Of a stretch of DNA of 64,000 bases, positions 2,558-54,089 are shown piece after piece. Below the pieces are notes generated by a model. It ran no database searches and had not been told where the DNA came from. It saw only the letters and a list, made by a program, of their open reading frames with translations. A program made the position numbers and the translations under genes. Origin of the DNA: Podarcis vaucheri (taxonomy: Eukaryota); assembly GCA_965113315.1 (NCBI GenBank), contig OZ220364.1, one strand, 5' to 3'. Numbering within the stretch: position 1 is the first letter of the stretch; the number at the start of each line of letters is the position of its first letter.

Positions 2558-3460
2558 CAGTGGTACCTCAGGAGCAAACTGCAGAAGATCCAAGTTTATT
2601 GCGCAACAGGTTCAAGGCGAGATTGAACCCCGAAGAAGGGGTGACAAGAACTTTTAAAGTTCCCTCCGTGTCCCAGAGTACAGTGCATGAAACGTCATGA
2701 ATACATTATGGGAAGGTTGGGTTTCACCAGTTACATCATGAATATAATTTACACGTCATGAATACATTATGAAAAGGTGGAGTTACATTAATTAACATTT
2801 CGGATGAGGGAGGGGGAACATGCGGAGTGAGAAATATACATAGATACACATGTATTGAGTACCGGTGGTGGCAAGACAATGGGTCAGAAATATGCATCGT
2901 CTGCCACCTAATATTGCCTAGAGGAAGGCTTGGCAAAACGATCTGGGTGGATTAAGAAGTTCCTGCGTACGTGACCTGCCGCTTTGGGGATTATGGAAGT
3001 AGGGACAGCATCATGGAGTCCAAGGGGAACTGAGTTGAATGGCACCAAGAACGAGCAGATCAGAACCACGGTTGATTTTATATCAATTTTTGAAGATTTC
3101 AGTGATTTCTAAGCCACTCTGTACTATAGAGCAAAAGCAGAAACAGAGTGGATACATTGTAACAGGATTTTGACAGTATTACTTGAGAGATTATGGAGGA
3201 CAGGGGAGGGGTGATGGAGTCCTAGAGAAATTGAGCAAATATATTGTAGTGAAGAAGACATTGCCCCCCCCCCGTTCCGTATCAACCTGAAACTGTTCTT
3301 AACCTGAAGCACCACTTTAGCTAATGGGGCCTCCTGCTGCCGCCGCGCCGCCGGAGCATGATTTCTGTTCTCATCCTGAAGCAAAGTTCTTAACCTGAAG
3401 CACTATTTCTGGATTATCGGAGTCTGTAACCTGAAGCGTATGTAACCTGAGGTACCACTG
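2558..3460. mobile_element. Tc1/mariner MITE (cagtggtacctc family) with an internal insert of about 700 bp
   Basis: TIR cagtggtacctcagg / cctgaggtaccactg with TA flanks. Family body resumes near 3275; 2573-3270 is foreign. Confidence 0.85.
2573..3260 (-). mobile_element. LTR-like segment (possible truncated solo LTR)
   Basis: Minus-strand order: TG at 3260, 19-bp direct repeats containing TGACGT (2753-2771 and 2692-2710), TATA-like TTTAAAA (2652-2658), AATAAA (2595-2600). CpG-richer than its flanks. Confidence 0.45.
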
Positions 3461-3794
3461 TAATTAGTTTTATTTAAACATATACCTAGAAAAAGGGCTG
3501 ACCATGTATTACTCTTCAGTGACACCCAAAGCTAGTTATATCATTTAATATAACATTTGCATTTACTACACATGTTTGTTTTTAAATACAAGTAGCTGGG
3601 GAGAACTGATAAATATCAGAATCACAGTGACAAGGGAGGGGAGGAGCTTAACCCTTTCTTCCCTTATTGTGGTCCTGAAGTGAACCCCTCTGGCTTCTCT
3701 GAGGCTGCAAGCCTATCTGCACATGCCAGGGAATAAACCCTATTGAACTTTTTGATGCATAGGATTGCATTGTGAAAATGTTATTTGTATGGAG

Positions 3795-4005: not shown

Positions 4006-6603
4006 TTTGTATGGAGAGGACCCCCCTCCCCATTAGCATCAGATGGAAAGTTCTTCCCAACGCAAATAGCACTTTCAGAGGAAGGTTTTCCTCCACAACC
4101 ACATCAGAGAGTGGAAGTATGTAAGTTCTCCCTCTATATCTGCTGCAACACCAACAATTATCATCTTCCCACAAGCTGATATTTGCATTAAAAACAACAA
4201 CCACCTGCATCTTAAAGGCAAATAAAATTTTAACTTGATATCTAGTTTTTTCCTCCCTTTGTCTCATAGTAGGGCTGGCCATGCCTTTAAGAGAGAGCCT
4301 TTCTGTACAAATAAAAGGTCTCATTGAGGGTATGCACCATTCCTGGCTGTAGGCAGAGGCTTACATGGCTGGATTTCTCAACATACACCTTACATGTAGA
4401 AGACTGGGCAAGACCACACCAGCCTGATATCTCATTATCTATAGCTAGGTTTGTTGTAGTTTTTAAATTGTTTGGACTGAGCCGTAGCTAGTGGGGGTGT
4501 GAAATGTAGCCAGGTTTTTTGCCCTGGGTGAAGCCTCTAGAGGGGTGCTATTGATGCTCCTAGCCTGTGTGAATGTGTATGCAAATGTGCATGTGAGGGG
4601 GGCCAAACTGTTTTTTTGACCCGGGTGAAATAAAGCCTGGTTTGGAGGAGCAATTAATCATCTGAGCAAGCACATACAGATGGAAGAGTTTCATCCCACA
4701 TGTTTAATACCTCAGGGAGAACTAAACCCAAGTATGCCCTAGGCCCAGCTTTTGCTTCGGACACCTAAAACTTATTTTTTTAAAGTCTCTGTTGTGATAT
4801 CTTCTAGCAAAATGTGGAAGGAGGGTACATACTCAGGCTGCAAAATGCTGACAATGCTTCTGTTCATTCTTCCCTTTCTTAACAAATAATGATAATCTGG
4901 GCAGAGAAACATTCCTGCTCAGGAAAATTAGGAAGCTTACACAGCCTCCAAAGCATTAAAACAAAATGAAGTCTCAACAAAAGGGTCACAGAATAGCAAG
5001 ACACTGCTGTGTTTGTGTGTGTGTGGCATAGAATAGTCTTACTGACCACATGAGCTCTCTGTTCCCACAGAGCAATTGTTGAACAGGGACACCAAAGAAT
5101 TGAAAATAGAAAATGGGATGCCCCAAATGGTGTGTTCATTGAAGCATGGTGGGGCCTAGAATTTGTCTCTGTCATGAGTGCCATGGGGGTGTCATGGAGG
5201 CATCTGCAGAGGAATGGGAGTTGGAGCTGGAGGACCCTGGCGAGGGTCCTAGCAAGATGTGGGTGGTGGAATCAGGACCTACCCGAGCCCAGGGAGGGGT
5301 CTGAAATCTGGATCCAGGGAAGAGGCTGTGAGCTCATCCACACATCTGCTTGGCCTGTATTTTGCCCTGTGAAAATCCTGCTGAGCCTTTTAACCTGTAC
5401 CAATGTACCAATCTGAGTTGAGCATGATAGTCTTTGGCAGAACTGGGAGTTTGAGTTCTTCATCTGGCAGTGAGGGCCAGGACAGTCTCATATACATCAA
5501 ACATTTAAAGCACATTTCCCCTCTCAACTGTAGTTTGTTAAAGGTGCTGGGAATTGTAACTCTGTGTGTGTGTGTGGGTAAACTACAGTTCCCATGATTC
5601 TTTTATTTTTTTGGGGGGGGAGAGCATTATTTAAATGTGTGGTGTGCATGCAGCCACAGCCCACAGGGAAACCTGAATGGAGATAATAAATACATTATCT
5701 GAGGGAAGTACTACATTTCCTCTTGAGAAAACATTGTGGCCTGTATGATAAAGCAGTATCTCTGAAACAGAAAAACAGCCTTCGGAGTGTGTATGAACTA
5801 TGTGAAACCAAAGAGAAATGTGCAATGATTGGACAGGGAAGTGGAAGGACCCTTAATCGCATCCTTTTGGCCCAATCTTTTGAGATCACTGATTCCAGGA
5901 GGTCAGCCCAAGACATTTTTTGCTGCCTGAGGTGAAGGACAAGTTCTCCATCTCCCCCATTCCAGAAGCTGATCATATGACCAGTTGAATCTTCCTTCAG
6001 CACTCGCAACTGGGCAACATTATTCACAGCATCCAGTGACAGCAGGATAGCTCTGGGGTATGCGTGTGCAGAGCAGGTTCTGTCCTCCAACACCTCACCA
6101 CCTTTCCCTGACCACGGATATCTGCTCCCTAAGGTGGCTGTGTCTCCCTCACTTTCCCTTAGTCACTTGAGCCGTTATAAAACCCCAACAACCTCAGTTT
6201 TCCTCCCATCCATACAGCCTGAGTAACTTGCACTAGGTACACCAGGATTAATCACCAGAACTTGTTTTCAGTACTACATCTGAATCCTGGAACATGTAAC
6301 ATAAGAAAGAGCTTTTGGGTTTCTGCAGGGCTCACTCTCCTAATCCTTGAGTGGCTACAGCTGTGCCCCTTCTGGCATTTGGGAGAAGCTGTGTGTGTCT
6401 CCTGATCATGGGTCAGGGAGAAGGCTTGGCTTACCTTCTCATTCAAATCTTTTTTTCCCTACAACTCCAGGCAGGCCTCAGCCCAGGATCTCTCATTTCT
6501 GAGATCAACTGCTGCAGGCAGCACATATCATGCTGTCAGTTTTCCTCTCATCTCAATGTAAATGGTCAGTTCTCTACTGTGCCCTCACCCGACTGTAGGA
6601 AGA

Positions 6604-6775: not shown

Positions 6776-9596
6776 TAGTTCCCCAAAGGGAAGGAGGCTT
6801 GTAGGGACATTGTAACTTCCCCCGACCTCTCAGATGTGTGGTCTTTGCTGCCTGTGACTGGTGGCAGCCCCTGAGGCTGCGCTACACAATAAAACTGCCC
6901 TTCGCCTCTCTCTGCTTCGAACAAACAAGCCTCAGCATGTTGAGGAGATAACACACAGTTCCATCTGACTTCTTGACAGCACAGGAAACCCACATGCGCC
7001 CGAGCCGAAGGAAAATCCCAAAGAAACGCAGGAAGCCAGGCTCATAACAGGCAGGAAATACGAGAACACTTGCTGACATTCCAGAACAGGGAGTGAAACA
7101 GTGCCTGTTAATCCCCGAAGCCAGCACTCTGGGCCCCCTGAGCTGTTCCTTAATGTCCATTCACACACAACATTGACTCCTGCTGGAAATGTAATTCTGT
7201 TTAGCACGTTTTGTACATTCCTCTGATTGCTTTCAGGCATTTCATGGTGGGTGTAAATGAGGCTGATAATAGTCTCTGGGCCAACAGGTATCTCAGATAG
7301 GAGAAACCATGTTTTTTAAGCGATAACCATCTCATCACCTGTGTGTCTGTTGTATTCTTTATATCACCTTCTACTATGGGTTATACTGATGGTCTCTAAA
7401 CCACTATTCTTCAACCATGGGCCCCCAGATGCAGCTGGAATACAACTTCCATAATTCTTGACTATTGTCTAAGATGGCAGGGGATGATGGGGGCTGTAGT
7501 CCAACAGCATCTGGGAACCCACAGTTGAAGAACATAGCTCTGCACCTTATGTTTGCACCAGACCCTTGACATGTTGGAGACTCAGTTCTCACTGAGGTGG
7601 TAAATCTCTTACTGGACCTTACCACTTCAGACAAGAGGCAATAACTGGCATTATTTAATGCTATCTGAGGCAAGCCCCCATTTTAAGGCCCACCCCCCAC
7701 TAGCTGTCAGACATAAGGGTTTAAAACTAGCGTTCTGACAGCCATGGAGAACTATGACTCTTCAGATGTTGTTGGACTCCAACTTCCAACCAACCTAGCC
7801 AAAAGTCAGGGATGGTGTGTGTTGTTGTCCAACTTCTGGAGGGCCATCCCTGGTTTAAATGGTAAGAGATACGATTTACATTAGAGGCTAGAACAATGGC
7901 CCAGATAAGGCACTGAAATGTTTTCACTGGCCATTAGAAATAATCTAGACAAGTATACAGTCATCTGGCAGACATGTTTTAGGTCTGCTTCATATACTAA
8001 TGTGATGAGTGGGATTCAAGTATTCTTAACAAATAACTAAATTAAAAGTAAATGTAGATTCTAGATGTGTGTCAAACATATATGCAATGTAAGGGAACCA
8101 AAATTGGCTGTGGTAGGAATATTTCACAGCAAAATGTTTCTGTAATCATCCAGTGTATGTAATATGTGGGGTGTACCTTATCTGTATGGAAGAGCTGGAG
8201 AATCCCAGGCCTGGGAAGCTATCTTTTTCATTTTCTTCAGATCAATTTTGTTTATAGGCTGTCACAATGAAGGGGGAGAAAGGCAGGAAAGCTGCTCACT
8301 AGTTGGAGTTTATAGGCCACTTGGACTAGAAGCTACCTGGATTAGTAATCCGGCCATTTCAGACCAGCTAAAGTCTCCTAGTTGTCTTTGACAGCTGACG
8401 CACATTGAACACTTTGCAATAATCATAGTGCACTAGTTATATTTTCTTCACTACAGTCTTCCCCAATTATTTTCTGAATATTCAAGGTATTCTGTTGTCC
8501 TTGACAAAGTCCCAAAGCAATGTTTAAATGTCATTTGTTTTTAATTAGGCAGCTGTCCGCAGATGCTCCCTATTGGTTCTCAAAGGCTACCATGACCAGA
8601 TCAAGGAACAATTAAAGAAGCTTTCAGAAAGAGTTGGATCTATGTAAGCCCAGGATCCAGACTTTAACAATGGAATGCTGTAAATGCTTGAGACAACATA
8701 CAGTAGCTATTTGTTTTTGTTTGCTTATTAAAAAAGATATTCCCACCAAATTAAAAATGGGCTGTTTTACAATCATCGAATCAGAGAATCATAGAGTTGG
8801 AAAGGACCCTTAGGGTCATCTGGACAAATTAAAACAGTAATTCAGTTACAGTTTTAAAACATACATTTCAATGTACATCTAAATAATAATGTTCTATGGT
8901 ATTTATGAGGTGAATCTCAAAGGAGAATTGATTCCAGCATTAAGACTTTCTCAAAAAAGACTCTACCTGGAGCCACAAATTATGGACTAAAGAAAACAGA
9001 AGCAAGGCTTCTTTGTGTGACCTCAAAAACTGAAAGAACTGAATCTTTCCCTAAATAATGTAATGTTGGGTCATCTTAACTCTCCTTTTAATATCCATTA
9101 AATGGAGATTGACTTTATCAATGCAGAAAGCTCTCTCCTTTTTTCATTGTAATAGTCTATGAGAATCCTTTTCATTCAGACAGATGCTCTTCTGCTCTCT
9201 ATAATTTCTCACTAATGTACACTGTACTTTTATCTCAAGCGGTAATATTTACCCACTAGCTAAAAGTAGCCCAGTCAAGCACACTTGCTTACTTTTAAAA
9301 GAGCTGCAGCAACTGGTTAAACTCTTTGAGCAGAGCACAGGCGCCATTGTGGGGCTTTTGTCTGAAAGTATATGCTATTAAGTCTCAGCTGTAAATATTC
9401 TGAGGCAGGTACCTTTGATAACTATTTGCTGCTTTTCCACGACACTCAAAGTCAGCTGCCTGGGGCCTAACAAACAGGTGAAGACTTTGTGCAAGAACAG
9501 GAAATTCAGAGAAGCAAGAGTGCCAGATAAGACATAGCAGACATAAAAGACCGTGATATAAGAACCAAGGCCATGCAGAAGAACACTTTGGAAATA

Positions 9597-9795
9597 AAAA
9601 AAGTCCTTCCAGTAGCACCTTAGAGACCAACTAAGTTTGTTATTGGTATGAGCTTTCGTGTGCATGCACACTTCTTCAGATACGAAAGCTCATAACAATA
9701 ACAAACTTAGTTGGTCTCTAAGGTGCTACTGGAAGGACTTTTTTTATTTTGTTTCGACTACGGCAGACCAACACGGCTACCTACCTGCAACTAGA
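9597..9795. mobile_element. Penelope-like element pLTR fragment with 5' inversion
   Basis: 68-bp inverted repeat (9592-9659 / 9682-9749, 1 mismatch) of the motif gtagcaccttagagaccaactaagtttg...agctttcg. 12-bp TSD actttggaaata at 9585-9596 and 9796-9807. Family assignment is from recalled reptile Penelope pLTR sequence. Confidence 0.8.
9646..9683 (-). ncRNA. Minimal type I hammerhead ribozyme motif (Penelope-associated)
   Basis: Minus strand: GUAU-CUGAAGA-A-GUGUGCAUGCACAC-GAA-AGCU-C/AUAC. Contains the CUGANGA and GAAA cores, a palindromic stem II, a palindromic AGCU stem III, a UC cleavage site and stem I GUAU:AUAC. Confidence 0.72.
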
Positions 9796-11405
9796 ACTTT
9801 GGAAATAGGCCTAGAACACTTTTTTTTTTAGATGGCAGGAAGTTGAGATGGTGGGCCCTTTTAGCTCATGTCTTCATCCAGCTGTGAAGCAAGCATTGCT
9901 CCTGCTTATACTGAGTAGAAGAAAAAACAACTCAGGACAGAAGTTCCTTAAGCCAACTCAGGACACCACACTGCAGTTTCTCCATATCCTGAATATGCAT
10001 TTAACGGCCTCTTAATAATAATAAATTGCCTTGTAGACATTTTTCTCTTTGCTTCAGTGTTGCATCATCAAGAACTTGTTTCCATGCAAAGGGCGGAAAA
10101 ATATATTTATATAATTAGCTTTCTTTATTAGGTTTAGCCACTGGAAAAAGAACCCAAGCCAGAGTAATAGGGACGTTCTTGCCAGGTCTCCACAGAACAC
10201 CAAAACTGCTCCAAGAACAAGTCTGAGAGCCTCTGTTTGAGCTGCTCAGCCTCAACCTCAAAGGGACAATGGATTTCTCAGCAGATACCCTAGACATTCT
10301 CTTGCAAACCTCTAACTTAGCCATTTCTTGCAGCTCATTATTGCAAGCCACTTGTGCATCACTCTACACCAATGATGACAGACCCCTGCTACTGTTTAAA
10401 TAAGCATTTTTCTGTCATTAAAGAGAGATGAGTCAAAGGCCTGGAATATGCTTTTGCCAGAGGTTAGTGATTCTCCTTCAACTTCCTTCTGCCTCTCATT
10501 CACCCATGGGAGTGCAAACAAGTCAGAAGCTGAAGTGAATCAAGGTACTGTTGTTTTAAAATAACTCCTGGCATAAAATGGATCCTATTGGCGCATCTAT
10601 ATCCCCACCATCACTGCCAATCTCCCACGTCCTGTTCACCACATCAGCAAGCCAGTGCCGTTGCAATACTTCTGCAGCGCTTGGAAATATCTGGTCAGTA
10701 CTTACAATTGACCTTGCAATTCCAGCGATCTCAGTTTGAAGGTAAGGACACATCTCAGTATCCTGAGAGCAGGATTTCCTCTGCTTGTCAAAATGCTGAT
10801 GGCGATGCCAGAAGAACTGAGTCAGCATTTGAGCCTCGGTTCCTTCCTGCCCCAAAGATGCAACTCTGCAGTGTTTTTCAGGATCACGAGATTAAAAGGA
10901 AATGAAGTCTTCCAGAGTGTTCCTGACTATAGTTACCTACTTGGCTATAGATTCACACAAGGAATCACAGCAGTACAGGGGCAGTGAATCCTCACTGCAG
11001 CTGGAAGGGGGGAATGGGGAATAGTCCAGGAGAAGAAAATCACAGAATCACTCATGCAGAAAAGTTGGAGAGTGGATTTATTTATTTTTTAAAGAGAGTG
11101 GGAAGGGCAGGTTCAGTATTCTTCAAGATATGGCACCACCCTCCCTACCCACAACACCACTTGCAGCAGGTTACACCGCTCTGTTGTAAGGTGACCTGCA
11201 ATCCTGTAAACCCCTATTCTTAATCTTGAAGGGAAATATTCCATCTCAAGGCTGAGTGTATGAATTTGCCTATGTGGACATTCAGGCATCAAGAGCCTAT
11301 TCTCTTCACTCTTGGAAATCAAAGAGTAATGTGGGAGAGACTGGGTCTTTCATTTTTAATCCAGGAAGGTGGGTTTGGGATTTGGAGCCTAGTCCTAGAT
11401 ATCTA

Positions 11406-11750
11406 GGGACGCGGGTGGTGCTGTGGGTTAAACCACAGAGCCTAGGACTTGCCGATCAGAAGGTCGGCGGTTCGAATCCCTGTGATGGGGTGAGCTCCCG
11501 TTGCTCGGTCCCTGCTCCTGCCAACCTAGCAGTTCGAAAGCACGTCAAAGTGCAAGTAGATAAATAGGTACCACTCCGGCGGGAAGGTAAACGGCATTTC
11601 TGTGAGTTGCTCTGGTTTGCCAGAAGCGGCTTAGTCATGCTGGTCACATGTACGCCGGCTCCCTTGACCAATAAAGCGAGATGAGCGCCGCAACCCCAGA
11701 TTTGGTCGCGACTGGACCTAATGGTCGGGGGTCCCTTTACCTTTACCTTA
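11406..11750 (+). mobile_element. Full-length Sauria SINE
   Basis: Starts gggacgcgggtggtgctgtgg with B-box ggttcgaatccc and ends in an (ACCTTT)n tail. TSD cctagatatc at 11394-11403 and 11751-11760. Confidence 0.92.
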
Positions 11751-12320
11751 CCTAGATATCCAACAAGGAATGAGGCATGGAATATGGCTTACATCTCTCG
11801 TTAAATTGGGATCCTACAGAGGATGTCACGCTGGGTTGCACTGAGTACAGGAAACATTGGGTTAAGGCCAACTAAAGTTTTACTACCTGAGGTGGTCCTG
11901 TCCATTAATTTTGATGGCTCTGCTCTATGACTAACACTGGATACGACTCATGATTTACAGCAGCACATCCCAGTCTCTGGAGGGCTCAGAAAAAACAAAC
12001 ACAGATGAGAACATTCGAGAATTTGTGCTGACATAAAGATCCTTCTGACGCAGAACAGGATGCCCAACTAGTACACTGCTGAGCACCAGCAGGTTGTGCT
12101 GCTTTATACTGAGAGGACTAAAGGCTCTAAGGCCGGTGTGGAGAACCTTTGGCCCTCCAGATATTGCTGAACTACAACTCCCTGGCTGAGGCTGATGGAA
12201 ACTGCAGTTCGGCAACATACAGAGGGCCAGAGATTTCCCATTACACTTAAAAGAAACTTAAAATACAACCCTATGCCTGTTTACTCTGAAGTAAGTCACA
12301 CTGGGGTCCCCTTGTGAATA

Positions 12321-12555
12321 CAGTGGTACCTTGGGTTACATATGCTTCAGGTTACATACGCTTCAGGTTACAGACTCCGCTAACCCAGAAATATTACCTT
12401 GGGTTAAGAACTTTGCTTCAGGATGAGAACAGAAATCGTGCAGCGGTGGCAGCAGGAGGCCCCCATTAGCTAAAGTGGTGCTTCAGGTTAAGAACAGTTT
12501 CAGGTTAAGAATGGACCTCCGGAACAAATTAAGTACTTAACCCGAGGTACCACTG
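12321..12555. mobile_element. Tc1/mariner MITE (cagtggtacctc family), opposite orientation to the 25290 copy
   Basis: TIR cagtggtacct / aggtaccactg with TA flanks; internal sequence is the reverse complement of the 25290 copy. Confidence 0.92.
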
Positions 12556-15500
12556 TATCTTGTTCCATGCGACCCCCAATCTCCAAGAGCGGTGGAAGAG
12601 GCTCCAGAGATTCCAGGCACTTAGCCAGGGATCACGTTTCCTTTTGGAAACGAGGCAAAGCAGAGACTGTGGTGTCTTTATGGTATATGGTTCATTTACA
12701 CACATATATAACCTGAGCCTGTGGTGGAAGGGCTCACAGCATTAACACTCCTCTAGGGTTTTGCTTCTCCTATGGCTGTGGCCTTGGATCCAAACAGAAA
12801 TCTGCCATGGCTCTCTGAGGCTTTGCTCCAGTTTGATGCGTTTTATAGACTGGCACTATCTTCTGCCACATCCCAGCCAACTGCAATCCTAAACTCAACC
12901 CTGCTTCGCGTATCTTTCTGTGAAAGGAGGGGCTCACACCCACCTGGCACAGATTGTTTGCTTTGTTAATCGCCCGTTACCTTCCTTTTGTTATCCATAA
13001 TGGCTCTTCTCCCATGCAATTTCCTGAATGGGAAACTGGTTTGGCCTGCATTTTAACACTTTGCTAAATCCAGCATCTGGACGTTAAGCCTCAATTAAAC
13101 TCCAGTACCCACTAGAACAAGGAATTTAGGGGGGTCGAGGCACCCACAAACACACGACAATATTTAGGGATGCAGCATCAACATATCATTTTTGGATCCA
13201 AAATATTAGAATTTTGTGTAGACATGGTGACATGGTGTCTCTACAGGGAAAGGAAAGAAAAAGCCTCACGTATGGTACTGGGCATACCTTACACTGAAGA
13301 TCTTGACCCCATTGGCTTGTATAGGAAGTGCTGCTGTGAAGAGCAAGACCCGGGCTGGCATCTCAAGAACCTGGATCAGCAGAGGAGGGAACTAGCAACA
13401 GAGCACAGCTATCTGGAGCAGTACTGGGGTTTTGCTGCATGGTTCAAAGGCAGGTTTGTCTTCTGGCTTTGGCAGGGCAGGGGAAGGGACTGTTCCAGGA
13501 AGGGCTGAGTTAGGGATTTTCCACTAGGAGCTGGAGAAAAGATTTCCTTCATATATCTCTTTTGTACATGATTTACCGGGATCCAAAGAACCACACAACT
13601 CGTCCTGCACACTTGTGAGAGGCTTTCTCAAACTGCAGTGGCCCCCCTCCCCATGCCCATGTCCCCTGGCAGGCAATGTTCAAGACTGACAAGACTCTAG
13701 AAAGCAGCCTGAGATATGGCAGGAGGGTCTGCAGTTCAAAGAAAGACAGGCAGAGGTCAAAAGAATTTGAGAGGAGGCCTGCTGCATCAGCCCAAAGTCT
13801 TTTATCTAGACCTTCTTCCTGTTTCTCACAGCAGACAATGGGGAGCCCGCGAGTAGATTGTGAGGGCAAGAAAACTCTTCCACAGCTATTTCCTTGCAAT
13901 TGGCGTTTAGAGGCATGCTGTCATTGATCCTGGAGGTATCATATAACCATCAAGACTATTAGCCATTGATCATCCATGTATTTATCTAATCCTGTGCTTG
14001 AATTACAGGGAGGGGGGGGATTCCAGCCCCCTTGCCCTTTTTTGACAGCTATTGTTTTTGGAACTTGACCTGTGGGGGAGGGAGCATAATGAGGCTAAAA
14101 AAAGAGGTGCGTGGCTAGGTAAAAACCTGTGGATTTCATTCAGAGCTCCATACATCCATACCCACTATATATCAACCATATGAGTGCCGATGGGAGCCAG
14201 TTATTCCTTTACACCTTTTAAGTTCCAAGGGTTTCCACTGGGTTTGAGACAGGCTCTTTGGCAGGCCAGGCCTTTGGATGGCACAGCAGGCGAAGGAAGA
14301 ACAGGGAGGCGGGAGGATGCAGCGCTGCAGAAAGAACATCTAAAGTGCAAGGGCAACTGCCCTACATTTGGACCGAGCTCGATGCCAGAGTCCCTGAATG
14401 GCAGGACGGTTCTGGGGACGGGAGTTGTATTCAGGAAAGGAAACAGCCAGTGAGTCACCCCTCCAGAAGGTTCAAGGAGGAATAGAAGGAACAGCTGTTC
14501 AAACTCCGCTCCATGCCAGCTCTGTGGGTAATGCGGAGAGACAGCACTGGACAACATATACTCAGACAAGGCATGGAGCCAAAGAGTCAAAGATCTGCTG
14601 GGACAGTATCGCAACACATTTATTAGGACCCACTAAATTTTAAAATGTGAAATGTAAGCTTTAGAGTTACACAAAACTTTTCCTCAAACTGAATTTTATT
14701 TTATTCTTTTTTTTAAAAAAACGCAAAACATTTTTTTACAGGAAGACAGAAAGCATGTTGTTAAGTCCTGGCTTTCGATTTGTTTTGGTTTGTCTTGTTT
14801 ATTTTGGAGTATTTAGACTGTACAAAAAAAAATAAATTATCGAGGCAGCTTCCAATACAGTAAAATAGACAATTCTATAGACAGCACTAGAGCGAGGCAA
14901 AGGTATATATAAATTTCTCCTCTTAGTTCTCTGATGTTCCAGCAAGTGCCAGTCTGCAGCAGTTGAATCCAGAGGCAGAACAAGCTGCTCTGGCACCCGG
15001 AGCGGTGCACATGCTGTGCACCTGGGGGGCAGGGCTAGTTGGGGGCGGTGCAACAATGTCACCCCCCCCCAGGGATGACACCTGGAGCAGACCGCACCCC
15101 CTTCCTCCACCAATGGTTGAATCTCCTGCCCAGAAACTGACTTGAAGCAGCCAGGTGTATGTTGGTCCCTTGCAGGTCAGGGCTTCCTCACTACTTTCTG
15201 TTGTCTCTTATAGACCAGCCCCTGGGCTCTGGAAGCAGGTGTTGGAGGAGCAAAGGTGTTAGATGCCTCCTCTCAGTCCTCAGAGGTTCCAGCTGCTGGG
15301 ACTGTTGAAGGTTATGGAGGAACTTATTGAACTGTGTTGTTCTCATATGACATTCTTCTTTTATCAGCAGAATCTCACCTGTGTGCATCATCCAAGGCAA
15401 GCAATCGTAGACAATGACTGTGAGGACATTGTAAGGGTTGATAATTCCCTGACGTTGTGGTTGGAGCAGGAAAGGCTCCCAAGAGATAATGCCCCTTTCT

Positions 15501-25194: not shown

Positions 25195-25550
25195 AATCAG
25201 GTAGGTAGCTGTGTTGGTCTGACGCAGTCAAAATATATACAAAAATTGTCCAGTAGCACCTTAGAGATCAACTAAGTTTATTCTTGGTACAGTGGTACCT
25301 CATGTTAAGTACTTAATTCGTTCTGGAGGTCTGTTCTTAACCTGAAACTGTTCTTAACCTGAAGCACCACTTTAGCCAATGGGGCCTCCAGCTGCCACTG
25401 CGCCGCCGGAGCACGATTTCTGTTCTCATCCTGAAGAAAAGTTCTTAACCCGAGGTACTATTTCTGGGTTAGCGGAGTCTGTAACCTGAAGCGTATGTAA
25501 CCCGAGGTACCACTGTATAAGTTTTTATGTGCATGCACACTTCTTCAGAT
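25195..25550 (-). mobile_element. Penelope-like pLTR fragment (same family as 9597-9795), interrupted by a MITE
   Basis: caggtaggtagctgtgttggtctg...tccagtagcaccttagagatcaactaag...[MITE]...tgtgcatgcacacttcttcagata, flanked by an ag(t)n-ata duplication near 25181 and 25551. Confidence 0.8.
25290..25515. mobile_element. Tc1/mariner MITE (cagtggtacctc family)
   Basis: TIR cagtggtacctc / gaggtaccactg, TA TSD, internal taacctgaa repeats. Confidence 0.92.
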
Positions 25551-28159
25551 AGTTTTTTTTATAGTGGGAGTAGATTGCAGTCTCTTGGAAATTGGATGTG
25601 CCTGCTATAGAGGAAACCTGTGTGGTGCAGTGGCTATTGTGGTGGACTGGGACAGGAGAGACCAGGGTTCAAATCCCCTCTCAGCCATGAAGCTCCCTGG
25701 TTTACTTTGGACCAGTCACTGTCTTTCAGCCTCTACCTTACAGGGTCATTGTGAGGATATAATAGGAAGGGGACGGATGGATAATAAATGCCACTTTGAA
25801 CAGCTTGGAGGAAAGATGAGTCACTAATGTATTAGTAATGGTGCTGATAGAGGAGTGCTGTTAAGCTTACTCATAGTAAATCATAGCAAATGTTTTGAAG
25901 TTAGACTGTCCTCTTAAACTGACTTTGCACAAACATTGCTTTCTATATTGTCAAGAAACAAGTGCTGTCTGCTTGAAGAAGAATCCTCTTTAAATGTAAA
26001 TGCTTGCGCAAAAATATTCAAGTAATGATAATAAGAAGGAGTTCTGACTTTTGTCTCTTTGGCTCACACCAAAATAAGGAACATTTTGCTGGGCTACTGA
26101 AACCTAAATAGGCCTCTGGCTAATGATTAATGACCCAGCAGAATGGAAGCAACCTCAACAAACCAAGACGAGGTGCCGGGCAAAAAGCTTTCCATCACCA
26201 CTGCAGTAACTTAGAAGGCACTTCAGTTTTTTTACAAGAGCTCTCTCCTGATCATCACCGCGTTTTGCTCTTGAGAGCCCACAACTTGATTATAGAGCTG
26301 CCATGGCCACAGCAGCCAGAAACTGATGGGTTTGGTTAGCAGAAGCTGGTCATATTACACAATTCCAAGGAAACCTCTCAGCAGAGGGTGAAATACCACA
26401 GGACACAGCAAAGTTGGAACAAATCGCTCATTGTCTAGGCTAAATGGGGGCCAAGCCACAATCCTCACTCCTTCCCATAACCCAGAAATTAAACTAAAAA
26501 TCCTAACAGCGGCCAGGGCTGTTTGAAGTGGGAAGGGGACACTCAAAGCAGCTGAAGACTGCCCCCTTATGGGCAGCAGCAGCATTTGAGCATAACACGC
26601 TGCCATTTCAAATGTTTTAATTTTTCATGCTTGCAGACGCTTTCACAAATCATCTCCCCGAAGGGATTTATTAAAAGCACAGACATCCCATAAGCATGGA
26701 AACTGCACACATCCTTGTGCAGTTGATGGGTGACAAATGAATACACAGCTGCTTTTCTGTATGTACTTGGAATAGGCAAGTGCATTTGCCACACATGATG
26801 AACTATATGGAAGATTCGGTTTCCTATACGGAGTTCACATTCCCAGAGGAAGTGTCTCATAAAACTGATTGGCATACTAGCTTGTAAGTGTATCCATCTG
26901 TCAGACTGACATGACGAAGATGAACCATAGGAAACAACACATAATACTGGAAGCAGTTCTAAGTTAGCATGCTGCTTACTGTCATAATGTGATACCAAGT
27001 CTAAGGAACCCTTACTGGAATAGGTCAGATGCTGCTCTAGGAACCCTAATGATTAAGGTGTGAGATACAATAGAAAGAGAGTTTGGAATTAAATTCCTAT
27101 TTGTCAAGATCCAGGAATATGTGTGGTTTCATTGTGTGAAAGCAACTAGTGGCGGGAATTTACCAAATGAATGGCCAAAGGGCACTCTGGTCCACAGGCT
27201 TGCATTGAATGTAGCTTTCAAGTCACAATTTATTACTTCCGGCCTTTCAGAATTTTAGTTAATCATTAGCACTGGCTTGGTTAGTTTCAAGATATCGAAC
27301 TGCTACCCTCTGGTTCATTTATAGGAGCAGCTTTGACAGACAGATGCTCTATAGGTGTCTCCAGATTTAGCATCTTCTGTGATGTAATCAGTCATAGGAA
27401 TTAAATAATCCAGCATAAATACTTATCAGCGCAAAAACAAAAGAAGTGGTAGAGTCTACACTGCTGCAGCTTATCTGATACATTACACTTCCTGGCCTGA
27501 GAACACAGCAGTTCCAATTACCCACTACCCTCACAGCTAAAAACATGAACATCTGATGAATTGCAGGTCTTAACTTTCATTGTCAATGTTAACTTCTACC
27601 CCTCTCTCTTAGGCTCTTAGTAGGCACCTAAAATATTTGTGTGTGTATCAAACATCCATTCCTCATAGTTTTAACATGACTCATTATTTTTCTCTTCCCA
27701 TTTCAAAATCACAATTTCAGAGTACATAGTTGAAACCCTTATTTAAAATTGTTAAGGCCTTTTGTTTAAGTACTGACGAATTTCTATCTAGCTGTATTTC
27801 AGCATTTCATGGTTTTCAATTTCAGTATGTCTACAGAGATATTTACTGCCATTTTATGGATGTAATGGGCCCATCATTGATATAATAGTATTTATTGATT
27901 TTCACCATACCTACTCTTATTCGGATTCTAATGGTACAAACTATTGTACACTACCATGAATAAAGTGTTGAATTTGTCCACATATTACAATTCCAAGCAA
28001 TTACCTTCTACAGCAGTAGATTGAAAGACCTTGGAACCAGATAATCTCTTTGAATTCCATCAATAATAAGATTGCCTCCATATTTCAACAGATCATATTG
28101 ATTATATTGCATATAATATGTGCCTAAGAACTTCCAGAAGGGTATCTGCCTGTTGCAAC

Positions 28160-28230
28160 AGACACAAAGAATCCTGTGGCATCTTAAAGACTAACAAATT
28201 TATTGTGACATAAGCTTTTGTAGACTACTA
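28160..28230 (-). mobile_element. Older Penelope-like pLTR relic; further relics near 1640-1730 and 14600-14690
   Basis: tgtggcatcttaaagactaacaaatttattgtgacataagctttt resembles the 9597 family; the ribozyme core is degraded. Confidence 0.55.
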
Positions 28231-34822: not shown

Positions 34823-36246
34823 GTGTCCACATACAGGACAGACAACAGAAGAACAAGCCTTCTTTATCCTTCTCTTCTCAAGTGCTGGATCATCATTAAG
34901 AGTTCCATTCAAGTGAGCCCAGAACCAACAGAACTTTACACATCATGTTTCCAGCATGAAATTCTACCATATACCAACCAGTGGCATCTACAATTTTACC
35001 AAGTCATCACAAGCCATATTACTTTCTGACTAAAATTTGAGGCAGCACTGCCTTGCCTTCTCTGTAATGATAGGGAACCTTGTGACTCCCAAGAATCTGA
35101 ATTTTTGTTGTTGATGCAAAACACTGTCCATTACAACTGCAGCTTTCTTATCCACTAGTAGCTGTTATTTTCTCCTCTGCTCATTTACACAGCTATAGTC
35201 ACCAGTATTTTGCACTGGTTTTAACCAGAAGCAGTTCCACAAGCCTCCCAACACATCAGTTCATATTCAGTAAGGCTTGCCTTTTTAGCCTCCTCTCATT
35301 CTCACGGTAAACTTTACCCATGATTTCAGCAAGGGCTGAGACTCAATGAGCTACTTTAGACATACCCAATGAAATGTTTGATTTTTCCTCTTCCAACACC
35401 AGATACTCCCTCAAGCCATTTGAAACACAAATTCAAACTCTTGGGACCACAGTGCACAGTTCCATGGATCTAGGCCATGTGTGTTTACTACTATGAAGGG
35501 ATCTTACAAGAACAACATTCGTACCTAACAGCAGTATTAATATTTATTTGGGCCACCTACACAGGTGTGGATGTACAGTAATTCATCCTAAGAATTAGTG
35601 CCCCAAGGTTGTGGAACCGCTTCCCTAAGGAAGAATGGCGCTGCTCTCTCTTCTCCTAAATCCAGACAGGGTACAAATTTCACCTATGTTGCAAATCATA
35701 TGCCTGCTAATTTATGCTATGATATATAATATTATTAAAAACCCGGATTGCTTTGTCTTAAATTATTTTGGTTCAATATGATTAATGTATTTGATCTAAG
35801 CTGCCATGAGGTTGCAAAAAAGCAGGATAAAATCATTTCAAACAATAATGAAATATTTATTATGTTCCCATCATTCATTACGAAATCCTCAATAACCCAA
35901 TATAGAATGTTATGAAAGTGCTCATATTTACTACAATCCAGTTCCAGAAATGAGGCATCTGGGTCTTTTATCACTAGCTCAAAAGAGAGAAATTCAAAGT
36001 GGCTGATGTTCTTTCAAGAATGTGACAGTTGCTGAATACAAGAACTTGAACAAGCGTTTTAAAATTAGGTTGTTTTGTCACCATTAAAAAAAATAATCCC
36101 AGGGAAGGTTGACAAAGACTCCTAGAACTGCATCTGTAGTGATTTCAAGATGGTCAATACAGAAGCAACCATTGTTGCTGGACAAGATGAAGGCTGGTAC
36201 TTAGTGTCCCCACAAACAATCAAATCCAGTATTCCAGAAGACAATA

Positions 36247-36461
36247 CAGTGGTACCTCGGGTTAAAAACTTAATTCATTCTGGAGGTCCGTTCTCAACCT
36301 GAAACTGTTCTTAACCTGAGGTACCACTTTAGCTAATGGGGCCTCCTGCTGCCACTGTGCAATTTCTGTTCTCATCCTGAAGCAAAGTTCTTAACCCGAG
36401 GTACTATTTCTGGGTTAGTGGAGTCTGTAAGCTGAAGCGTCTGTAACCCGAGGTACTACTG
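36247..36461. mobile_element. Tc1/mariner MITE (cagtggtacctc family) in TUSC2 intron 2
   Basis: TIR cagtggtacctcgggtta / taacccgaggtactactg with TA flanks. Confidence 0.92.
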
Positions 36462-36721
36462 TACTATAAAGTTGGCAAGGTAGAAAACCACTTCTATGAA
36501 AATTCAAAGGAATCACATGGGAATGACCAACGTGTGGGCCTCCAGATCTCTACCATCATGCCTGACCACTGGCTGGGGTTGATGGGAATCCAGAAATAGC
36601 TGGAAGGCAGCAGGTTAGCTACCCTTGGTATAAACTCAGAGACTCTCTTGTTGCTCAGTATCCTCAAGTGTTAGCTTGAAACCACTTTGCAACAGCTCCC
36701 TTTTACTTCTGATTGTGTTAC

Positions 36722-39305: not shown

Positions 39306-41438
39306 GGCCGGGAAAGGGGAGCGGAGGGAGGGAGAGGAGCCTGCCGGTGCCTCCGGGGAGGCTGCTGGCAACGGCACCTTCCCCACACCGGAAAGCTCCG
39401 CCCCTCTCCCGGCGACGCAACTTCCAGTTCCGCCGCCTCCGGAAGTCCGCTTCCAAAAGAAGGTCGAAAGCGCCGCTCTGTAGCGGGGCCGCGGCGTGAC
39501 GCAACTTCCGCTCCCCTGTGGAGGTGACAGCGTGCTGCCTGTGCAGGGCGAGAGTGGGTGGGGGAAGCAGGATCCAAATTCTCAATAGGACGATTGAGAC
39601 AGACAGCTATAATACTTCCATCAGAGTCCAGCGCTCAAAACTACACTTCCAACACACCTCTAAGCAAGTGGCAATAGGATTGCTGGCCTCCATTAATGCA
39701 AATGCTGCTACAAGCAGACTGATGCAAGTAGCGAGATCAGTATGTGAGTTGGTTTCCAAACAAATTACCTTTCTGGTAAAAAGAAACTGTCATTCAAGAA
39801 ATTCAGATTACCTATATTATTTTAACAAAGAAATACCCAAATCTGCAGTCCTACTTATTTGTAGCTTCAATGGGCTCACTGGTACACTTCCAATTTCTGT
39901 TATGTATGATTTTATGCTGCAATGCTGAAAAAACTTAAGTCAACGGGACTTATTCCTAACTAACATGTTTATGAACAGGTGCAGTGTGATGCAATGTTTG
40001 GGGAAAGGTGAAGCCAAAAATGACTTAAAAGTCCATAGCATTTGCATATCCAAGCCAATTTCTATTCCCATAACAATACAAACTGCATCCATGAAAATAT
40101 ATTTAAGGCTGAGATGTAAACAAAATTGTCTTCCACACTCTCTCTCCTCAGTTACTAGGGCTGCACTGAAAATTCACCTCTTTTAATCTTCAGGCCGAAA
40201 GTGTATTTCAGAGGCAGAATGTATCTCTCATACCCTAAGTTATGCAAAAATTCCTATTCACTGGCATTTTCCCCCCTTGATCTTTTACATCTCCCTCTCT
40301 TACACTGGGTTGTCAGCTTGATAATATAACCACACAAGGAAACCAACCTGAAATGGGAACCACATAATGAACTGGATGTCATTTTGGAAGCAGTAATGCT
40401 TTTGAATACCAACTAGTTGCTGGAAACCACAAGAGGGGAGAGTACTCTTGAGCACAAATCCTGCTTGTGGGTTTCTCAGTGATCTGGTTGGCCACTGTCA
40501 GAAGATGCTGGGCTAGATGGGCCATTGGCCTCATCCAGCAGACTCCTATGATGTTCATACACTATATAGCCTGATTTGGCTATGCCATCACTAGTAAGGA
40601 CAAACAAATCCAGTTCAGAATTGTCCTTGAATTGGGTAACTCTTTTAAGTCCTTTCACAGAATACATTTTCCTGTTGTTGAAAACGGAGGTGTATTGAAG
40701 TGCTCTGTGAGAATCACATGCACAATGACCCATGCTTTGGCTATAAAAATCTAGTTCACAAGTTATTGGGACTGAAAAATAATTTTGCCAGCAGGATGGT
40801 GCCCAACACACAAGCTTGACAAAGAGCAACCCATTAAGTACAGAGGAACTGCATGGCCACAATCTGACAAGGGGAAAAAACGTGTCTTTGCAGCACTGAG
40901 GTATGGATGACACTGTCTCTGGTCCTTAGAGAGTCTTTGATATTCTAGGGTTTATGTGCAGTCTGCTGTGACTTCAGCAGACCACTTTGGTAGCCAGCAG
41001 CCACACAAGATTTTTGTTTTGCAGATGATATTTGTTAAGTACAGTACACTATCTTGCCTAGGCCTGGACTACAAGGTATGAAAAAGAAATAGTTTTATTG
41101 TTTTTCGAATGTGTCTTTTTATATTTTATCTTATTGTACCTTTGGCTATGAAGTGTTTATAAATCTGCAAAATGAAATAAATAATATGAAATGGCTTGTG
41201 GATCCCAATGTACCTGATAACATTATTGGAAGTAGGCACCAAGGTAGTTGTGGGAGATATAATAGGCTTATTAACCAATAAATACATGGATTTACAGAAC
41301 TGCATCAATATCTTCTGCATGTGATGTCCTGTGGGGTCTTGAGGGCTCAACAACTCTCTGTTCTAAGGAAGGCATTCTGTTTAGGGGTCACCTATTCTGC
41401 TTCAATTCCAGAGTTAATAGTCACCTTAATACAAACTA

Positions 41439-41805
41439 GGGACGCGGGTGGTGCTGTGGTCTAAACCACCGAGCCTAGGGCTTGCCGATCAGAAGGTCAG
41501 CGGTTCGAATCCCCGCAGTGGGGTGAGCTCCCGTTGCTCAGTCCTAGCTCCTGCCAACCTAGCAGTTCGAAAGCATGTCAAAGTGCAAGTAGATAAAAAA
41601 GGTACTGTTCTGGCAGGAAGGTAAACAGCATTTCTGTGCGCTGCGCTGGTTTCGCCAGAAGCAGCTTAGTCATGCTGGCCACATGACTTGGAAAAACTGT
41701 CTGCAGACAAAACATCGGCTCCCTCGGCCAGTAAAGCGAGATGAGCACTACAACCCCAAGAGTCGTTCGTTACTGGACTTAACTGTCAGGGGTCCTTTAC
41801 CTTTA
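41439..41805 (+). mobile_element. Full-length Sauria SINE
   Basis: Same head, B-box and tail as the 11406 copy. TSD aatacaaact at 41428-41437 and 41806-41815. Confidence 0.92.
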
Positions 41806-46499: not shown

Positions 46500-46794
46500 C
46501 TGTAGGAGCAGAAGTACAGTAAGCATTGCATGAGGGTCACATGGTTGTAAAAGTAAGAATAAAAACAGGCTACAAGTCAGTGTCTCTGAGAGGCACAGAA
46601 GCCAAAGTTAATTCTCACAAACCTTGGAATGAACAGGGTTTTTCTACAAATACAGGATGCTATCAAAACAGGGATGGAATATGCTTGCGATGATTGCTAT
46701 ACAGTAGTTTTCATTTTAAGGATTACAATGATGGGACAGCAAATGCAGACATAGGCCTCCGAAGCTCAGCTACCAAGTTATACAGGTAAAACTC

Positions 46795-47057
46795 CCAACC
46801 TAGCAGTTCAAACGTATACCAGCGCAAGTAAAAAAATAGGTACCGCTGCGGCTGGAAGGTAAATGATGTTTCCATGCACTCTGGTTTCCATCACTGTGTC
46901 CCGTTGTGGCAGAAGTGGTTTAGTCATGCTGGCCACATGACTTGAAAAAACTGTCTGCAGACAAATGCCAGCTCCCTCAGTCTGAAAGTGGAGATGAGCA
47001 CTGCACCCCATAGTCAAATTCGACTGGACTTAACCATCCAACGGTCCTTTACCTTTT
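46795..47057 (+). mobile_element. 5'-truncated Sauria SINE in RASSF1 intron 3
   Basis: Begins ccaacctagcagttc, is colinear with the 3' part of the full copies, and ends ggtcctttacctttt. Confidence 0.85.
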
Positions 47058-51552: not shown

Positions 51553-51809
51553 AAAAGGTAAAGATAAAGGACCCCTGACAGTTAAGTCCAGTCGCAGACA
51601 ACTCTGGGGTTGGGGCGCTCATCTTGCTTTGCAGGTCAAGGGAGCAGGTGTTTGTCTGCAGACAGTTTTTCCGGGTCATGTGGACAGCATGACTAAGGTG
51701 CAACGGAACACTGAAACCAGAGCAGCGCACGAAAACGCCGTTTACCTTCCCACCGGAGCGGTACCTATTTATCTACTTGTACTTTTAGTGTGCTTTCGAA
51801 CTGCTAGGT
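51553..51809 (-). mobile_element. 5'-truncated Sauria SINE
   Basis: Reverse complement of the SINE 3' part (aaaggtaaag...gaactgctaggt). TSD tgacataa at 51545-51552 and 51810-51817. Confidence 0.88.
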
Positions 51810-53138: not shown

Positions 53139-54089
53139 CCGTATTTTGCGCCCCATAAGACGCTCCGGCCTATAAGACGCACCTAGTTTTTTTGGGGGGA
53201 AATAAAGAAAATTTTTTTTATTCCCCCCCCAGGTGCGGGGCTGGAAGAAAAAGGTCGGGGAACAGTGGGAAGGCACGCTCTGCCTCCCCGCTGTCCCCCG
53301 AGCTTGTGGGGCTGGCGATGGAGAGAAGTGCACCAGTCCCGGGACGGCAGGCAGCTCTGTGCCGCCATCCCGAGCGGGGCGGGACTTAGCGCCCCGCTCG
53401 GGATGGGGCGTAGACCTGCCTGCCGTCCCGGGACGGCAGGCAGCTCTGTGCCGCCATCCCGAGCGGGGCGGGACCTAGCGCCCCGCTCGGGATGGGGCGT
53501 AGACCTGCCTGCAGTCCCGGGACGGCAGGCAGCTCTGTGCCGCCATCCCGAGCGGGGCGGGACTTAGCGCCCAGCTCGGGATGGCGGTGCAGAGCTGCGC
53601 TGGTCCCAGGACCGCAGGCAGCTCTGCGCGGCCACCGGGAGCAGGGCGGAGCTTCGCCCCCGGCTCCCGGTGGCCGGGCAGAGCTGCGCTGGTCGCAGGA
53701 CCGCAGGCAGCTCTGCGCGGCCACCGGGAGCGGGGCGGAGCTTCGCCCCCGGCTCCCGGTGGCCGGGCAGAGCTGCGCTGGTCCCAGGACCGCAGGCAGC
53801 TCTGCGCGGCCACCGGGAGTGGGGCGGAGCTTTGCCCCCGGCTCCCGGTGGCCGCGCAGAGCTGCGCTGGTCCCGGGATTGCAGGCAGCTCTGCGCAACC
53901 CTTGGAGCCGGTCTCCCGAGGGTTGCGCAGAGCTTCCTGAAGCCTGGAGAGCGAGAGGGGTCGGTACGCACCGACCCCCCTCGCTCTCCAGACTTCAGCG
54001 AAAGCCTGCATTCGCCCCATAAGACGCAGGCACATTTCCCCTTCATTTTTGGAGGGGAAAAAGTGCGTCTTATGGGGCGAAAAATACGG
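53139..54089. mobile_element. Non-autonomous Tc1/mariner (pogo/Tigger-like) DNA transposon with an internal GC-rich hairpin array
   Basis: 25-bp TIRs ccgtatttt(g/t)cgccccataagacgc with 1 mismatch and TA on both flanks. Extra internal copies of ataagacgca near 53172 and 54019. Confidence 0.9.
53336..53940. repeat. 89-bp tandem repeat, 6 full units plus 1 shortened unit, each an internal inverted repeat
   Basis: Unit starts (gtcccggga / gtcccagga / gtcgcagga) at 53336, 53425, 53514, 53603, 53692, 53781 and 53870, an exact 89-bp period. Confidence 0.95.

Follow-up and report, generated by a model that had tools for sequence, protein, structure and literature searches.

A minimal type I hammerhead in a head-to-head insertion of a Neptune-type Penelope-like element: a probably inert copy with a proposed origin by two-ended priming

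The hammerhead motif at 9646–9683 of the window (the whole 64,000-nt stretch of Podarcis vaucheri DNA that was analysed) very probably belongs to the end repeat of a Penelope-like element (PLE) of the Neptune type. It is part of a 199-bp head-to-head insertion, is predicted to be masked and is likely to be inert, and the insertion is proposed to have formed by two-ended priming of reverse transcription. The motif is real and was correctly named when it was first noticed by a sequence-only reading; the copy is an ordinary one, one of more than 9000, and likely does nothing.

Results

The hammerhead motif

Reading the minus strand from 9683 to 9646 gave an exact match to the noted motif, GUAU CUGAAGA A GUGUGCAUGCACAC GAA AGCU C^AUAC. 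The stems claimed for it (stem I of 4 bp, stem II a 14-nt palindrome and stem III the loopless AGCU) were confirmed, as was the full catalytic core, the CUGAAGA and GAAA cores and the NUH cleavage triplet all being there. The features of the motif are as follows.

9646–9683, minus strand: minimal type I hammerhead motif, fitting the min-HHR consensus in the accessible part of PMC4209133
9680–9683 with 9646–9649, minus strand: stem I
9673–9679, minus strand: CUGAAGA
9672, minus strand: extra A
9658–9671, minus strand: stem II
9655–9657, minus strand: GAA
9651–9654, minus strand: AGCU (stem III)
9650, minus strand: C17

Cleavage is predicted between 9650 and 9649 on the minus strand. The extra nucleotide between 9 and 10.1, the G10.1–C11.1 pair and the palindrome at 15.2–16.2 without loop III, which characterise min-HHRs in the accessible text of PMC4209133, were all found. 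The entire stem II arm is palindromic because a 5-bp stem carries a self-complementary 4-nt loop.

From C3 to where stem I ends the motif measures 34 nt; this core has 9164 exact copies in the 1.61-Gb genome (4592 forward and 4572 reverse) and its reversed control has none, so the motif is not a chance occurrence. A 29-nt piece just downstream gave 15 291 genomic matches. Computation folds the isolated 38-mer into stems I and II, the z-score of −0.44 being unremarkable on its own. A within-genome pattern search for covariation returned only two decayed stem II variants, with pairing restored in neither. An Rfam search of window positions 7000–13000 at E up to 10 returned 12 matches, all of them sub-threshold hairpin matches and none a hammerhead family; the Rfam hammerhead models likely do not cover a loopless helix III. 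A microRNA reading was rejected as the mir-559 match (61 bits against a gathering score of 95) mirrors the long hairpin only.

The head-to-head insertion

The first reading overlooked the head-to-head inverted context around the motif. The motif sits at the pivot of a 199-bp insertion, in which two pLTR ends meet head to head between the copies of a 12-bp target duplication; a 68-bp inverted repeat is centred on the motif (9592–9659 against 9682–9749, 99% complementary with one mismatch).

9585–9596, no strand: target-site duplication copy 1, 12 bp, its first bases overlapping the U-rich end of the short arm
9597–9683, minus strand: short pLTR arm (sense), beginning at the 5' edge of stem I and ending in the U-rich tract
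9682–9683, no strand: inversion junction, a 2-nt microhomology common to both arms; junctions vary among sister loci
9682–9795, plus strand: long pLTR arm in the opposite orientation, starting inside stem II and bearing a 35–45 nt tail
9796–9807, no strand: target-site duplication copy 2, 12 bp, identical to copy 1

The long arm lacks CUGAAGA because it starts inside stem II. It is antisense to the 3' half of the hammerhead with a single mismatch, 9695 against 9646, and the junction is asymmetric with a 22-nt unpaired centre. The short arm has a 3' end of the first class, which lies some 55 nt beyond the cleavage site. No ORF sequence is present in this stub, nor is the TATA region or promoter of the element. 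It is an inverted pair with one complete hammerhead and not the array of at least two tandem complete units that marks a non-LTR retrozyme.

The short arm matches the pLTRs of two ORF-bearing copies, L136 and L138, at 81 and 83 of 88 positions respectively, and the window arms as a whole are 88–94% identical to these pLTRs. They fall in a subfamily that is in the minority, with about 13 of 99 sampled as compared with 80 of 99.

The parent element

Tracing longer copies upstream led to an intact ORF, encoding reverse transcriptase (RT) and a GIY-YIG domain, flanked by pLTRs of the identical type. This bears out the proposal that the motif, a minimal type I hammerhead, comes from a Penelope-like element. 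The copy L136 (G000:C25:3430800-3435400) is an intact partial tandem in which an uninterrupted 910-aa ORF (Pfam RVT_1, E 3e-12; GIY-YIG, E 3e-05) lies between two near-identical pLTRs. Its landmarks, in L136 coordinates, are:

4752: TATA-like box
4780–4784: TCAGT, followed by the hammerhead and tail
4882: first ATG of the 910-aa ORF, which is followed by the second pLTR, ending in a U-rich tract

The hallmarks of an EN+ PLE were found: a single ORF with RT plus a GIY-YIG endonuclease at the C terminus, hammerhead-bearing pLTRs arising from partial tandems, and an inverted 5'-truncated copy with a one-sided tail and a short target duplication. Ahead of its GIY-YIG domain the L136 protein has a C-x4-C-x2-C linker. 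A CX2-5CxxC linker between RT and EN is described in the accessible part of PMC8557442 as a mark of Neptune and Nematis elements, and the element is assigned to the Neptune type from this linker, which Nematis shares. A further copy, L137, has another open frame of 880 aa. Identity to the query is 97% for many RT copies, which makes it likely that the family was active recently.

Copy structures across the family

The exact-core sample consists of the first 100 matches on contig C1, and the 100-copy samples come from the first 5–6.5 Mb of one contig. The 100 exact-core copies comprised 40 with the promoter region, 36 short copies with an inverted arm, 20 short solos and 4 short tandems. The 3' ends of sampled copies form two groups about 35 nt apart. 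Among 30 short head-to-head units, two of which sit in one segmental duplicate, 27 consist of one short and one long arm; 23 have a target duplication of at least 7 bp, which is 12 bp in 10 of them. An antisense arm was found upstream in 54 of the 100 exact-core copies, and within 60 nt in 34 of 100 sampled copies (window 9592–9749 and sister units). With about one third of copies having a close antisense arm, read-through of the family's members may yield thousands of RNA hairpins that are nearly perfect.

A second solo pLTR copy of the same family lies in the window:

25198–25551, minus strand: solo pLTR, decayed, G12 lost, apparent 13-bp duplication

It is split at 25290–25515 by a 226-bp DNA-transposon-like element with terminal inverted repeats and a duplicated TA, relatives of which were seen at window 3284–3473, 12318–12565 and 36237–36474. 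A fragment of an older related pLTR, without the CUGA half, was seen at window 28172–28225 (63% identical to the window arm over 41 nt). Elsewhere in the genome the locus L098 (G000:C1:5631954-5632397, minus strand) holds five tandem units of 101–104 nt, each with an exact hammerhead core; a unit begins just before stem I and extends to the U-rich class of 3' end. The locus is a retrozyme-like array of tandem complete units and offers a natural substrate for a dimer assay.

Copy ends and the state of the template

The 5' ends were sampled from 99 of the first 100 matches to a pattern placed downstream of the cleavage site. Of these matches 29 continue upstream and 70 stop within 49 nt. At the stem I edge six positions, with peaks 4 and 6 nt ahead of C3, account for 30 of the 70 short 5' ends, and the cleavage site accounts for two; the binomial value of 1.6e-10 is a rough one, both arms of a unit being counted and 7 of the 70 ends lying outside the range used. 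Genome-wide, 1444 copies have four non-element bases directly before stem I and, with a looser pattern, at most 94 copies start at the cleavage site, an upper bound because the pattern admits the element's own base at one of three positions.

The short copies begin 30–33 nt below a TATA-like box. Because the favoured 5' ends are 31 and 33 nt from its first T, transcription would appear to start just before stem I, this putative start site being placed by the spacing. A cap-derived G was present before the commonest 5' end in 10 of 22 cases, which is no clear enrichment.

In all four RNA runs from a related organism the depth was flat over the cleavage site (in run X15, 609, 567 and 549 reads at 4811, 4818 and 4824) and no pile of read ends was found there. 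These are fragmented libraries and would miss degraded cleavage products, and they weigh little as evidence because 88–94% of their reads continue into unlike sequence, so that mostly embedded copies were sampled. Among the near-symmetric head-to-head joins found genome-wide (n = 37), 8 are centred on AT at the cleavage site, 6 on the neighbouring TA and 13 on AGCT; two more are blunt at the cleavage site, one has two extra bases and seven are asymmetric. Joins at the cleavage site are thus in no clear excess over neighbouring control palindromes. Since the copies begin at the edge of stem I rather than at the cleavage site, over which RNA reads pass without a step, the templates were likely uncleaved. 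For the PAc element of the green anole, unprocessed RNA was used as template, with internal initiation at two sites and extension of both strands (PMC11167929).

Predicted folding of the window copy and of dimers

The upstream arm, when transcribed as part of a minus-strand RNA, is antisense to GAAA, AGCU and the cleavage site and also to stem I's 3' strand, and one long hairpin is predicted as the fold (−128.8 kcal/mol, z −18). The computed cost of forcing the hammerhead open was 1.3 kcal/mol for the bare 38-mer (open-fold probability 0.12), 4.3 kcal/mol for the short arm alone, 14.0 kcal/mol with 17 nt of natural upstream sequence (1e-10) and 17.4 kcal/mol for the whole insertion (6e-13). 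These energies were computed for RNA free of proteins and take no account of protein assistance, though the anole ribozyme needs it (PMC11167929). The computed folds do not leave the core free in its natural transcript context. The expectation of a potentially active ribozyme was consequently not upheld for the window copy, whose core is predicted to be buried in minus-strand transcripts from upstream and whose TATA region is missing. With the catalytic core predicted to be covered by pairing with the other half of the insertion, the copy is probably an inert passenger.

For two 38-mers, a dimer cross-paired through stem II is predicted at −30.6 kcal/mol, two monomers at −13.6 kcal/mol and the double hammerhead at −11.1 kcal/mol, so that, by prediction, the palindrome of stem II steers the dimer towards an inactive form. 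For two natural tandems, L098 with a spacing of 101 nt and L059 with one of 48 nt, the predictions place the double hammerhead 27 and 20 kcal/mol above the ensemble. Against such cross-pairing, co-transcriptional folding could still trap local hairpins. A simple tandem-dimer assay of the motif may fail because, in the energy calculations, the two stem II palindromes pair together. The sole dimer test of a min-HHR in the accessible part of PMC4209133 gave low activity in vitro.

Age and genomic setting

The insertion was found at the same place in three of three DNA runs of related organisms, with contigs from the unique flanks extending 21–31 nt into it on both sides in each run. The flanks differ from the related organisms at 29 of 2355, 33 of 2357 and 34 of 2359 positions (1.2–1.4%). 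Presence in all three runs means that the insertion predates those splits. For this insertion the description of the motif as a young lizard variant therefore holds only with that qualification; the family looks recently active, with RT copies at 97% identity. It was also said to lie on the same strand as the neighbouring genes, which is true but uninformative, the nearest genes being distant (the end of TUSC2 at about 32.7 kb; others about 13 kb beyond the motif).

Window, near 32.7 kb, minus strand: last coding exon of TUSC2
Window, minus strand: a gene that we take to be RASSF1 from its RA domain and sequence
3.5–9 kb before the window start, minus strand: ORF with a SIX1_SD domain and a hyaluronidase exon, the neighbours on the other side

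No Pfam domain indicating a host gene around the motif was found above the cut-off in 11 ORFs of window 5–23 kb, nor at E 0.001 in 89 more ORFs from 0.6–36 kb. Between TUSC2 and the genes on the other side the scan, which covered ORFs of at least 72 aa, showed no coding domain; short exons may be present there. No RNA reads were found on the unique flanks of the insertion in one related-organism RNA run (12% read).

Other observations were made in this region. The SIX1_SD ORF (L139:5555-6511, minus strand, about 4 kb before the window start; E 2e-13) is GC-rich and lies directly upstream of the hyaluronidase exon; the human RASSF1-TUSC2-HYAL cluster is not known to have a SIX-type gene at the corresponding place. 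A GC-rich tandem repeat of 89-bp units with internal palindromes lies between RASSF1 exons at window 53336–53958. One dispersed repeat of ~350 bp, presumably similar to the Sauria SINE, occurs at window 11403–11744, 41436–41805, 46792–47056 and 51559–51785.

Discussion

Proposed origin of the insertion

The proposed explanation starts from what was observed, namely the anatomy, copy numbers, ORF link and end distributions, and includes a masking fold that is predicted; we infer the promoter with its start site, the priming at two ends and the uncleaved state of the template. In a tandem element, a putative TATA/initiator promoter would drive transcription of the upstream pLTR from a start 4–7 nt ahead of the catalytic core. 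Nicks about 12 bp apart would be made in the two target strands by the element's protein, and reverse transcription would be primed at two internal sites, 35–40 nt apart, on the uncleaved leader RNA. Of the resulting cDNAs, one would extend as far as the 5' end of the RNA and one would end in stem II; microhomology would then join them. The one-sided tail with an inverted pLTR fits, by analogy, the two internal priming sites and two-strand extension of anole PAc (PMC11167929).

The closest competitor, which we regard as somewhat improbable, has a single cDNA folding back at a palindrome (stem II or AGCU) and being copied, instead of two primed cDNAs. Perfectly symmetric joins at stem II (two loci in the 5'-end sample) and the symmetric joins at AGCT, AT and TA centres (13, 8 and 6 of 37 loci) speak for it, self-priming at junction palindromes is proposed in the accessible part of PMC3846280, and such copy-back suits some junctions as well as two-ended priming does. 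The window junction, however, is asymmetric like that of most sampled units, and fold-back alone leaves the tail on one arm only (27 of 30 units) unexplained. Less probable again is that a 3' splice site accounts for the fixed 5' end, the templates having been spliced, as with the 5' intron of Drosophila Penelope. A pyrimidine tract and CAG immediately before the stem I region make a good splice acceptor, and the D. virilis Penelope intron ends at the helix I edge (accessible parts of PMC4209133 and PMC2377424). Against this, the ends are divided between two positions 2 nt apart, no skipping joint at the stem I edge was found in the four RNA runs, and the published turtle homologue has CAC, not CAG, upstream (accessible part of PMC4209133). 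A spliced first exon was rejected since the upstream element segment was joined there in none of 19 testable short copies.

That the ~200-bp hairpin is a non-autonomous element replicating as a unit, MITE- or retrozyme-like, appears highly unlikely. The best-scoring 40 loci all match nearly the whole of a 213-nt query at 89–100%, but a search with that query itself favours the head-to-head layout. Independent formation accounts for the units better because their junctions vary among loci and the whole hammerhead may be on either arm (17 short, 10 long of 27). We give still less credence to activity of the window copy as a dimeric ribozyme cutting a host or read-through transcript, as first suggested. 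Its core positions are all intact, the bare 38-mer opens with appreciable computed probability (0.12) and the anole PAc hammerhead does cleave in the presence of its protein (PMC11167929). Set against these points are the open-fold probabilities of 1e-10 with 17 nt of upstream sequence and 6e-13 in the whole insertion, the missing promoter, the zero depth on all unique flank bins in the RNA run mentioned above and the 89 further ORFs, all without a Pfam domain at E 0.001; moreover intact cores are common by descent, occurring in 59 of 72 sampled copies of the family.

Beyond the two-ended priming of an uncleaved leader preferred here, a more speculative and on balance doubtful extension can be drawn. 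The hammerhead would be the very start of an RNA polymerase II transcript and the thousands of short insertions would be full copies of the uncleaved leader which map its start site. The ribozyme would then not serve to make templates; cleavage would inactivate the RNA by removing its capped first 34–37 nt, and the palindrome of stem II would both hold back the active dimer and act as the pivot of inversion.

Comparison with known systems

Min-HHRs of metazoan PLE pLTRs, reptile ones included, have been in print since 2014 (Cervera and De la Pena, PMC4209133). As far as the accessible part of that paper goes, the window motif shares with them CUGANGA plus one extra nucleotide, G10.1–C11.1, GAAA, a palindromic loopless helix III, a 4-bp helix I and a U-rich flank upstream, and differs in its stem II of 5 bp with a self-complementary 4-nt loop. 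The painted-turtle motif given there has the same CUGAAGAA core and AGCU; compared by eye, this single sequence shows two compensatory exchanges, C-G for a U-A pair in helix I and G-C for a U-A pair in helix II. No lizard or Anolis row was found in the searchable part of the supplement.

The insertion units of EN+ PLEs in the accessible parts of Craig et al. 2021 (PMC8557442) and Arkhipova et al. 2013 (PMC3846280) likewise have a head-to-head inverted and 5'-truncated pLTR, a short target duplication, junction overlap and a 30–40 bp tail on one end only; the window unit differs in being two leader ends from which ORF sequence is absent. Non-LTR retrozymes, as described in the accessible part of bioRxiv 10.64898/2026.07.22.740005, are similar in having a type I hammerhead in PLE-derived non-coding units, and L098 with its five-unit tandem resembles them, whereas the window copy is an inverted pair with one complete hammerhead. 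The purpose of PLE hammerheads is called still unclear in the accessible text of PMC8557442. Our search of the openly available literature found no paper on this lizard family and none that describes an accumulation of copy ends at the edge of stem I.

A further close system is the green anole's Poseidon element PAc (Frangieh et al. 2024, PMC11167929), also a lizard PLE with a pLTR hammerhead, in which two internal RT start sites define the tail, unprocessed RNA is used and the cleavage site is free of RNA-seq ends. The window family differs in its Neptune-type zinc-finger-like linker and in its first ATG, which lies 63 nt after the cleavage site, the PAc ORF beginning in stem II. The present family is a natural record whose copy ends argue for an uncleaved RNA template in vivo, and it extends the in vitro result from PAc, a different PLE clade. 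What it adds is modest, namely family-level evidence for an uncleaved template that begins at the ribozyme.
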